64,000 nt of DNA from Octopus sinensis (GCF_006345805.1 NC_043000.1:90086001-90150000), one strand, 5' to 3'; shown: positions 31,001 through 34,000, counted from the first letter of the stretch. Numbers and translations are program-made. Notes: a model not told the origin generated them from the letters alone.

Positions 31001-34000
31001 TATTTCTGAACCAACACCCAATGATGAGTATAGCAACAGCATATAGTATTAGCTTACTACATCATTTTCAAATACTTAAGATATCCACCACACCCTAAGG
31101 ATTATCAAAACAAATAAACAAACCTGTCAAAGGAAGTAGATTTCCAGACAAAATCCACAACGAAGTTGAGTGTACACTCCACTGGCACACCAGCATTACT
31201 TTTCAGTTCAATGGCAACCTCATCACTATAATTATCAGGAATCTTAATAACATGTCCAACACCAGACCAAGGCTTGTGCAATTCTCCCAGGTAACGCAGC
31301 CGCAGTTCATCACCATGCATCAGCTTCATCTCTTCATTAGCTTTTGGAAGGCGGAAGTAGGCAATTCTCTTCTTATTAAGGCCAACATCCCAACGGACAA
31401 CGATATTATCCTGAGTCTGAGATTCTTTCAGTTTCTTGTCATAATCAGCTTCCAGCTTGACCAAAGGACCAAATATATTCTGATACTGATAGGCATCATC
31501 GTAACTAAGAAAAGAGAAATTAAAACATATTAGGTTTACCTCAACTGTCACTCTCAAACCAAATTTATATATTTCTGAAAACATCAATCTCATTCACATG
31601 TACCATAGAACACAAGATTTTACACATGCACACACACACTTGGTAAAAGAGAAATATCCTTCATCAACAAAATAAATCACAGTTTAAGATACTTTCCATT
31701 AAAAATGCTTGACAAATGCCCATATGTATAAATGTATGTGTGTGTGTGTGTCTATATATATATATATATATATATATGTACATACACATATTGCTATAAT
31801 ACCAGTTACCTACATCAATGGAATGGTGGGATACAGGGGTAAGAGTAGAATGGAGTAAACAGAAGACAAATGGAGTCTATTTACATTTGAGATTTGTTTG
31901 TATGTGTAAAAAAACTCCCATACATCCTTCTGCTGATCTGCCTTTAGCTAAGTTAAGCAGGTGGTAACACCGTCTTCCCATGGATGTTTTAGGTTTTTTT
32001 TTTTTGGTCAGGGTTCGGACCAATACACACTATCTGCTGTTGAATCATCATCATCATTTAATGTCTGTTGTCCATGCTGGCATGGGTTGAACAGTTTGAC
32101 CAGGGCTGGTAAGTTGAGGGGTTCTGCACCAGATTCCAGTCTGATTTGGCATGATTTCTACTGCTGAATGTAACGGGTACTTTTGCATGTCACCAGCATG
32201 ACACCGGTATTTGACATGACTGATTTCACTTGGCAGATACTGGTGTCACACCTGTGCTGGAGGCATGCAAAAGCACCCATTACACTCTTGGAGTTATTGG
32301 CGCTAGGAAGGGCATCCAGCCATAGAAACCATGCCAAATCAGACTGAAGCCTGGTGCAGCCCCTTCAGCTTACCAGCTCTGGTCAAACTGTTCAACCCAT
32401 GCCAGCATGGACAACGGACATTAAATGAGGATGACAAAAAACAAAACCCCACTTTAAAACATCCACGAGAAGACAATTTTACCACCTTCCTAACTTAGCT
32501 AAAGGCAGAGTTCAGCAGAAAAACATATGGAAGTTTTCTTTTTCCTGCTACACACTATTTGTGTGTATGTGTATTTACATACACACACACACATGTAATT
32601 AGATGCCGTTTGTCTTCTGTTTACTCCATTCTACTCTTACCCCTATATCTCACTATTCCATTTCATTGATGTAATTGGCATTATGGTAATATATGTGTGT
32701 ATACATATAGTGCATATATATATATATATATATATATATATATATATACACACACACACACACATATATGAGCATTTGTTAAGCTCATGAAAAATATCTT
32801 AAAACTAATTGTGATTTATCTTGTCAAGGAAGAATATTTTTTTCACATGTACCATAGGACACTAGATTTTACACACACAGACTTTTGGCAATATGCCATG
32901 CTTGACATATTGCCAAAGGTCTTGGTAATTTGTCATTGCCTCCATGTGGCCTGATGCTTGAAAGGTGCTTTTTACATGCCACCAGCACAGTTGCTAGTTA
33001 TGCAATGCTGGTATCAGCCACACTGCCTCTGTGAGGCACAACACTCAAGAGGTGCTTTTTACATGCCACGCTTATGTTTATCAAGAATAAATCTAGGAGG
33101 ATTTTTTGTTGCAACTTGTGTGTATGAAATATTTGGGGCTACATAAAATTTACACAATATATACATACACCCACCCACACACTGGTGGTGGACGTGAGGC
33201 AGTTTGTGCCAATGTGTAAATAAGACAAATAAGCACAAAACAAGAAAACAGTAACAGATGGAACAAATGTGCAATTTTCCTTTCATCAGCTGTCTAAACT
33301 AAATTTTCAGTTTTGCAGTTAAGGACAGGATTGCAATATCCCTAGCTGTATCAACACCTATGGATAAGGTTAAGGATTGATCCAATAAGGGTGAGACAAA
33401 GAAGACGAGAGGAAAAATATTTAAGCAGTGGTACAGAGTCAAACACTAAAGATCAGACAGACACACTTGACATGCAAATATATAGATGAGTGTAAGAGAT
33501 AGGGACAACAACTCAGAACACACAAAATAGGACAAAGAAAAGAAAAAATATATTAATTCCTTTCAACCAAAAAAGTATTTTAATGGCTTGCTACAATCCT
33601 ACTGGCATTCAATAGAAATAAACTGAATTACCGTAAAAGAACTTGCTGAGGTTCTTCATCGACTCCAGGCTTTTCCAAATCTTCCAGTTTAGCCTCAGGA
33701 TTTTCCTAATAAGATCATAAATTCAATGTAACTATTTTTACAACAGAAACTGGTATATTTTAAAGATGGAAATAACTAAATTCTACCACAATTACAAAAC
33801 CCAATCAAAAACTCATTTTCCTATATTACATAATGATTTTTTTTTACTTTTACAATGAAAGAGACACATCTTATTGCCGAAACTTAGCTGTCTCAATTAT
33901 CCCCCCCCCCCCCCGGCCAATGTGACAGTAGCTCAGATATAAGTAACAAGCAGTTATCATTAACTCTGATTCAATGTTACATAACTTCTCATTTTAACCC

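Follow-up and report, generated by a model that had tools for sequence, protein, structure and literature searches.

The intron of UPF1 that lies upstream of the exon at 31124-31504 contains an inverted duplication of ~1.2 kb, with arms of 565 and 609 nt separated by a 14-nt loop. We attribute it, with a probability of about 0.6, to the repair of one germline double-strand break, in which both 3' ends would have folded back on short stems and copied nearby DNA before being joined to each other. Origins as an assembly artefact and as a transposon are both rejected, and the palindrome is likely a neutral relic. All positions refer to the window, that is, the whole 64,000-nt stretch of Octopus sinensis DNA that was analysed (GCF_006345805.1 NC_043000.1:90086001-90150000), and the features are collected in Table 1.

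Table 1. Features of the palindrome, the interrupted repeat and the host gene, in window coordinates.
Feature	Position	Strand	Description
Left arm (presumed original)	31652..32216	+	565 nt; single-copy DNA 31652-32043, repeat part 32044-32216
Loop of the large fold-back	32217..32230	+	14 nt, closed by ancestral GCCA/TGGC; left copy now GACA
Right arm	32231..32839	-	inverted copy of 31652-32216, 609 nt
Segment A	31593..31633	+	original intron DNA, template of the direct copy A'
A'	32842..32878	+	direct copy of segment A, bridging both fold-back products
Short inverted copy of repeat sequence	32879..32899	-	21 nt; 16/17 first nt pair with 32906-32922
GCTTGA	32900..32905	+	left half of the repeat's ancestral 6-bp stem
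Repeat, tail-side part	32044..32234	-	common short interspersed repeat; (TGA)n end at 32044-32056, minus strand
Remainder of the same repeat copy	32906..33069	-	same orientation, in register with 32044-32234
Other repeat copy, next intron	30838..30967	-	inverted relative to the right arm, so that both flank the exon
UPF1 coding exon, downstream of the palindrome	31124..31504	-	protein residues about 280-405
Host intron	31505..33632	-	2128 nt, GT...AG, upstream of exon 31124-31504

The UPF1 gene lies on the minus strand of the window, with exons from about 44791 to 6944. The protein encoded by the exon downstream of the palindrome is identical at 126/126 residues to UPF1 of Octopus sinensis, O. 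vulgaris and O. bimaculoides. Among nine cluster members we observed two residue differences in this exon, L/H at residue 112 and V/I at residue 35, both in other species and neither in named Octopus records; at residue 112 (31168-31170), leucine is found in the named Octopus records, and histidine in Sepia, Argonauta and a chiton. The palindrome takes up 56-57% of the host intron and ends 140-147 nt before the acceptor.

Global alignment of the two arms gave matches at 440/512 columns (85.9%), with differences at 72 columns and 14 gaps, the largest of 41 nt. The alignment score was 557, compared with a maximum of 49 among 200 shuffles, and each of three non-repeat blocks of the arms scored above 500/500 shuffles, supporting the first-pass annotation of an intronic palindrome of this size beside a UPF1 exon. 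The same content is mirrored in both arms around the loop at 32217-32230, as had been proposed: single-copy DNA that includes an (AC)n(AT)n tract, and ~190 nt belonging to a short interspersed repeat. With the microsatellites set aside, the arms differ at 59/405 columns (42 transitions and 17 transversions; K2P 0.165), consistent with the earlier view that the event is old.

The short interspersed repeat belongs to a family that makes up about 2% of the sampled DNA. In the copy interrupted by the palindrome, the left side is preserved up to and including TGGC (32234), after which comes the inverted copy. The repeat then resumes in register, as had been noted, at the exact position 32906 rather than ~32905. 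Repeat copies at 28640-28710 and 39908-39975 run uninterrupted through the junction and carry GCCA...TGGC, which upholds the earlier suggestion of a fold-back primed by microhomology. Intact copies contain two short stems, GCCA-N14-TGGC (stem 1) and GCTTGA-N7-9-TCAAGC (stem 2, 6 bp), which share 2 nt, GC, where the palindrome interrupts the repeat. Folding of the DNA of two relatives predicted stem 1 as the minimum-energy structure in one and stem 2 in the other. The loop of the large hairpin is in the forward orientation, as self-priming predicts. We saw no clear target duplication of the short repeat.

Beyond the right arm lies a series of shorter pieces. The final bases of the right arm, to about 32844, are common to the next piece, A', at which the microhomology is ~3 nt (TTC) on the left side and ~1 nt on the right. 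Positions 32842-32875 are identical to 31593-31626 at 32/34 nt, confirming the 34-bp forward copy described in the first-pass annotation, with the qualification that its template, segment A, starts ~50 nt outside the left arm. A second, small hairpin follows at 32879-32922. Pairing of 16/17 nt in this hairpin bears out the short inverted copy of repeat sequence that had been described there, but a second fold-back, at the 6-bp stem, explains this piece at least as well. The GCTTGA at 32900-32905 is equally readable as original forward sequence, and ~19 nt found after GCTTGA in intact repeat copies are absent here. All of the inserted DNA (32235-32905, 671 nt) derives from templates within ~640 nt of the site.

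This arrangement is consistent with fold-back of both ends of a single break. The break would have occurred at the overlap of stems 1 and 2, with ~600 nt of resection on the left. The top-strand end would have folded at stem 1 and then copied ~570-610 nt, and the bottom-strand end would have folded at stem 2 and then copied ~21 nt. The long tail may then have moved onto the opposite strand at the TTC microhomology, ~50 nt farther outward, where it would have copied ~37 nt (A) before being joined to the short tail via ~1 nt of homology. At the tip of the small hairpin, ~19 nt would later have been lost. The arms have since diverged to the K2P distance given above. We speculate that A, which ends beside the outer end of the arm, could reflect run-off at the edge of the resected region.

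One break explains why the two fold-back points overlap by 2 nt. As in fold-back repair, there is inverted microhomology with a short forward loop (14 nt for GCCA/TGGC; 7-9 nt for GCTTGA/TCAAGC in relatives), the inserted DNA is copied from the immediate flanks, and both flanks are otherwise in register. Fold-back at inverted microhomology followed by end joining is reported beside breaks in yeast (Yu et al., 2024, PMC11724301) and near breaks in flies (PMC5728401). The 21-nt arm and the 37-nt bridge are near the tract lengths reported for fold-back. The long arm, at 565-609 nt, is outside that range (~30 nt for Pol theta, ~150 bp in yeast), and hence we do not file the palindrome as a pure Pol theta scar. 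The first-pass annotation had proposed a single event of FoSTeS/MMBIR or Pol theta-like type; our analysis retains a local and probably single event but favours two-ended fold-back. Pol theta alone is unlikely, given a tract of ~600 nt and the typical insertions of up to about 30 nt reported for this polymerase (PMC11724301); judging from yeast work, a processive polymerase such as Pol delta would fit the long tract better.

Several observations count against two-ended fold-back. An extra, unobserved deletion of 19 nt is required, the microhomologies at the bridge junctions are just 1-3 nt and are blurred by decay, and the ~600-nt tract is above the 2-150 bp reported for yeast local fold-back insertions (PMC11724301). 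A stem-2 fold-back intermediate with its loop kept had 0 genome matches, compared with 2433 for the intact motif, and a degenerate version of the stem-1 junction had 2 other genome matches, both in unrelated DNA. With no such intermediates and a junction that does not recur, we rejected the idea that the repeat is a fold-back hot spot.

Serial template switching fits the locus almost as well, and we regard it as a possible course, though an unlikely one. One nascent top strand at a stalled or broken fork would have made four switches, copying its own strand, then the opposite strand at segment A, then the top strand of the right side, and finally returning in register, a scheme that we take to be of the FoSTeS/MMBIR type. 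This scheme yields the same final sequence, accounts for pieces that alternate between strands in the required order, places the first switch at the base of the 6-bp stem, which is a plausible stall site, and requires no later deletion. Several templated segments joined at microhomologies (4 nt, ~3 nt, ~1 nt and a 4-of-6 match) are present, as FoSTeS/MMBIR would predict, and short-range template switching has been documented in ape genomes (PMC7954356). However, only by chance would the short inverted piece stop exactly at the point at which its reverse complement is the same as forward GCTTGA; the final switch would have just a 4-of-6 match to use; and four switches are needed, compared with two fold-backs, one switch and one join. 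Origins in replication and in break repair lead to the same product and are indistinguishable by sequence; the overlap of the second fold-back stem with the first by two bases is what points to a two-ended break rather than to a fork with four switches.

We next compared the repeat part of each arm with other copies of the repeat, 120 of which were sampled to assess age. Relative to the nearest 10-15 copies (135-149 columns), 2-3 changes were shared, 9 occurred in the left arm alone and 6-7 in the right arm alone. Relative to the nearest 25 copies, 7 changes were shared, 12 were private to the left arm and 5 to the right arm. The small number of shared changes suggests that the duplication occurred soon after insertion of the repeat, and an origin during insertion itself is conceivable, if improbable. 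In that case, synthesis of the first cDNA strand would have halted at an RNA hairpin, and the strand would have folded back on itself and been extended by copying into the flank. Should the (TGA)n end be the 3' end of the RNA, this first cDNA would correspond to the top strand. Consistent with this scenario, the putative direction of the nascent strand is that of first-strand cDNA, and, relative to the nearest subfamily, the 2-3 changes common to both arms compare with 15-16 private ones. By contrast, the rest of the repeat is normally oriented and in register, unlike the layout of a twin-priming inversion, the short inverted piece needs finished cDNA as its template, and the junction is not recurrent, with 1 exact match and, for the degenerate version, 2 others that are unrelated.

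It is very improbable that two or more separate events occurred at one spot, the large fold-back coming first and the small hairpin and bridge later, provoked by an unstable palindrome. Inverted repeats are reported to promote further rearrangement (PMC11724301), and the short pieces are 6% diverged, compared with 14% for the arms. This difference is not significant, however: 2 differences in 34 nt of the direct copy (P=0.13) and 1 in 17 nt of the small hairpin (P=0.29) are compatible with the divergence of the arms. Moreover, the large arm needed joining to the right side anyway, and the bridge is that join.

Organism E (run X12) is about 1% diverged in the exon and about 5% in the nearby intron; a 574-nt stretch taking in both differs from the window by 14 letters and 5 gaps. 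This is less than the divergence between the arms, suggesting that the duplication is probably older than the split between organism E and the octopus of the window. Among the matches listed for the filtered contigs of run X12, pieces with a depth of 46 matched the left arm from 31796 and 31997 and the right arm from 32452, together tiling one arm, with no second contig over that segment; depth was 0 at 31937 and 31971, and 46 at 32482 and 32488. This pattern hints that a second arm was lost in organism E or never existed there, but because it depends on a gap in filtered contigs we do not count it as evidence. The filtered contig at the loop position had a depth of 46.3.

A transposon is hardly credible as the source of the palindrome. 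Two forms come into question: a Penelope-like insertion, in which a 5'-truncated pseudo-LTR would be inverted and a tail of 30-40 bp present, and a foldback element or MITE, whose target duplication would be A and A'. The palindrome is flanked by the direct repeats A/A' of 34-41 bp, and Penelope insertions are reported to have inverted ends and a 30-40-bp tail (PMC8557442). Against this, ~390 nt of each arm is found nowhere else; genome-wide, short microsatellite matches aside, the only match to the non-repeat part of either arm was its counterpart in the other (4 and 8 candidates scored), and the arms do not consist of dispersed element sequence as a Penelope-like pseudo-LTR would. A 17-mer spanning the fold-back junction occurs once in the genome, and we found no dispersed whole unit with a target duplication, as expected of a foldback transposon or MITE, which disposes of the dispersed foldback unit that the first-pass annotation had named as a counter-explanation. 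The interrupted repeat continues past A' in the same orientation and in register, an outcome that a target duplication cannot give, indicating that A/A' is not one. A search of the palindrome against Rfam gave 48 rows, with no hammerhead among them; microsatellite-driven miRNA rows were the only ones, and none reached the gathering score. The hammerhead core motif was likewise absent, as judged by a pattern that we take to represent this core. Hammerhead ribozymes are absent in Naiads.

The chance that the palindrome is an assembly artefact, caused by a read folded back on itself, is vanishingly small: near-perfect multi-kb palindromes do occur in the assembly (99.4% over 5.1 kb), but here the arms differ at 72/512 columns plus 14 gaps, and run X1, from a separate study, has left- and right-arm contigs apart, at single-copy depth. 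The comparison with independent reads covered 31050-32680, a stretch that takes in the left arm, the loop and the inner right arm. Within it, contigs of run X1 on 31050-31721, 31841-32071 and 32406-32638 had depths of 43-58 and contained 3, 4 and 0 substitutions, respectively. These contigs match the left- and right-arm versions separately, indicating that both versions exist as distinct sequences.

We then considered the RNA that the palindrome would produce. The transcribed strand of 31638-32850 is predicted to form one long duplex (-675 kcal/mol) whose longest perfect runs are 37 and 36 bp, in line with the expectation in the first-pass annotation that folding would give a double-stranded RNA covering over half of the intron and ending ~140 nt before the acceptor. 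As predicted, this duplex is long, stable and close to an exon, as editing inducers are. Conserved structure with compensatory changes was not found in these few data: transitions that leave a G-U pair numbered 26 for the transcribed strand and 16 for the other strand (p=0.16), and of three differences at paired positions in run X1, two break a pair, one restores a pair and none is compensatory. In the block 31913-31989, 10/12 differences lean to G-U on the transcribed strand. Both arms are decaying, and the palindrome has persisted while they diverged by 14%. Acceptor occlusion was rejected on the basis of the predicted fold, which leaves most of the 25 nt immediately preceding the AG unpaired.

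Run X17, which we guess to be RNA, includes a 3271-nt contig that covers 31124-31505 with 0 differences, suggesting that the exon is spliced at its expected ends and is unedited in most molecules of that run, although contigs hide low-level editing. The same run had no cover in non-repeat intron bins, and run X9 had cover on the exon side only. No residue change of the A-to-G type was seen in the UPF1 exon among the nine cluster members, and UPF1/RENT1 was absent from one 65,000-character editing supplement, which is probably not the full site table. The editing of exon 31124-31504 that the first-pass annotation suggested looking for was not apparent as fixed editing in this one likely-RNA run, in which contigs drop rare variants. 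Retention for function, also raised there, is unsupported by pairing bias, by compensation or by fixed exon editing, and palindromes of similar size recur in the genome.

In a comparison of several species, octopus was reported to give the strongest hyper-editing signal, and the proportion of its loci with the potential for long duplexes was exceptionally high (PMC5625713); in squid, a ubiquitous class of edits is reported to fall in introns and 3' UTRs over repeats (PMC9068888). From these accounts, the arms are likely to undergo incidental editing: as with other repeats of octopus, ADAR probably acts on the hairpin RNA in passing, and this RNA would be lost together with the excised intron. 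We give very little credence to the idea that a co-opted duplex of ~500 bp loads ADAR beside the exon of UPF1, the central helicase of nonsense-mediated decay, and tunes its editing or splicing, and that long two-ended fold-back would be a recurring source of editing inducers in those animal genomes that are edited most heavily. If the duplex did alter UPF1 editing or splicing, a repair scar would have turned into a regulatory element of mRNA surveillance in a massively A-to-I editing animal.

The duplication also created an inverted repeat pair, 30838-30967 and 32297-32434, around the 381-nt exon. Inverted repeats around an exon are a layout able to favour circular RNA. The duplex formed with 30838-30967 is predicted at -176.7 kcal/mol, compared with -201.5 kcal/mol for the same part paired within the palindrome, and back-splicing of the exon via this repeat copy is disfavoured by the stronger predicted pairing inside the palindrome. 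No back-splice joint through 30838-30967 was found among the 15 listed of 298 joints.

To place the palindrome in its genomic background, we searched 120 evenly spaced 10-kb stretches (1.2 Mb) for palindromes whose arms aligned over 100 or more columns and whose loop did not exceed 120 nt, and found 46 in 41 stretches, 4 of them with at least 400 columns. Six of the 46 were simple repeats, 10 had a centre seen elsewhere in the sample, 20 had dispersed-repeat arms with a local centre, and 10 had arms unseen elsewhere in the sample. Genome-wide search of 3 of the last 10, together with 2 neighbours of the window, identified dispersed repeats in 5/5 cases, and we have withdrawn an estimate of tens of thousands of single-copy fold-backs for this reason. 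Long hairpins are thus common and mostly repeat-derived, and those with single-copy arms are rarer. Local inverted pairs make up about 2.9% of the sampled DNA, and the same sample contained 100 local direct duplications. Near the window there were 8 palindromes in 200 kb, compared with 46 in 1.2 Mb, a difference from which we claim no enrichment. The presumed hammerhead core motif was present in 5/57 palindrome events and in 2.7% of random stretches. Judged by titles and the openings of abstracts, the literature on octopus palindromes and long invertebrate inverted duplications contained no paper on this locus or class.

Several other structures were observed in the course of this survey. A palindrome of 5.15 kb (L154:2964-8114; G000:C1, about 99,997,964-100,003,114) has arms that are 99.4% identical and no central loop, and represents either a fold-back of very recent origin or an artefact of long-read assembly. 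Another, of 3.95 kb (95.5%; L155:2205-6155; G000:C18, about 29,998,200-30,002,150), overlaps a direct duplication that spans 1.5 kb or more (96.9%), amounting to a triplication with one inverted copy. About 20 kb past the end of the window, a 1.6-kb palindrome (L020:659-2260) has arms that are 95% alike in aligned columns; other copies of its repeat are 66-85% alike by BLAST and its own second arm 81%, and it is probably a local fold-back of a dispersed repeat. Three palindromes (L040:6087-6541, L143:5040-5497 and L143:7406-7923) have similar outer ends; two of them have a common one-sided flank, and two have a hammerhead-like core motif. Within the window, a 140-nt inverted pair (35834-35967 and 37083-37221, 86% alike) surrounds 1.1 kb of another UPF1 intron, was unseen elsewhere in a 1.46-Mb sample and may be the trace of an inversion with staggered breaks. 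The window has further palindromes or closely spaced inverted pairs of smaller size at 60665-60923, 39324-39712, 8624-9104 and 16276-16386. Broken reading frames at 25700-27400, 36600-36850 and 49290-49510 resemble a Ty3/gypsy-type pol and Tc1/mariner transposases.

Read as two-ended fold-back, the UPF1 palindrome would preserve, in clean form, the fold-back repair of a break in an animal germline; its ancestral state is readable from thousands of intact repeat copies, and its long tract argues against Pol theta acting alone. We regard it as a teaching example rather than a discovery.

The locus can be compared with several known systems. Yeast templated inversions (PMC11724301) and Pol delta inverted duplications (Al-Zain et al., 2023, PMC10622511) are described as involving same-strand synthesis from inverted microhomology, release and joining to the other end, and the product in those systems, as at the present locus, is an inverted repeat with a short loop. 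The octopus palindrome differs from those reported systems in that its tract is ~600 nt rather than 2-150 bp, that both ends apparently folded back, that there is an extra 37-nt bridge, and that it is fixed in an animal germline without a dicentric outcome. In the account of Drosophila snap-back microhomology-mediated end joining, stems of ~4 bp beside the break prime synthesis (Khodaverdian et al., 2017, PMC5728401), and the snap-back, synthesis-dependent products are new inverted repeats, as here. The model given there invokes limited, non-processive synthesis, which the small hairpin fits well and which the long arm far exceeds. FoSTeS/MMBIR and short-range switching (Walker et al., 2021, PMC7954356) are alike in producing local pieces of alternating orientation joined at microhomologies; the four-point model described in that report has one reversed piece, compared with three copied pieces here. 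Penelope-like insertions, as described by Craig et al. (2021, PMC8557442), share a palindromic layout with a 30-40-bp extra piece, whereas the arms here consist of single-copy host DNA, a hammerhead is absent, and the extra piece repeats flank sequence in direct orientation. Finally, the Gabra-3 editing inducer (Daniel et al., 2012, PMC3479170), which is 150 nt from an edited site, is likewise described as a long intronic duplex to which ADAR could bind, and in both cases exon sequence is ~150 nt away. The Gabra-3 stem is reported to be conserved from human to chicken and to lie downstream of the known edited site that it serves (PMC3479170); by contrast, the octopus palindrome lies upstream of its exon, in which one likely-RNA run gave no fixed edited site, and is decaying without compensation.
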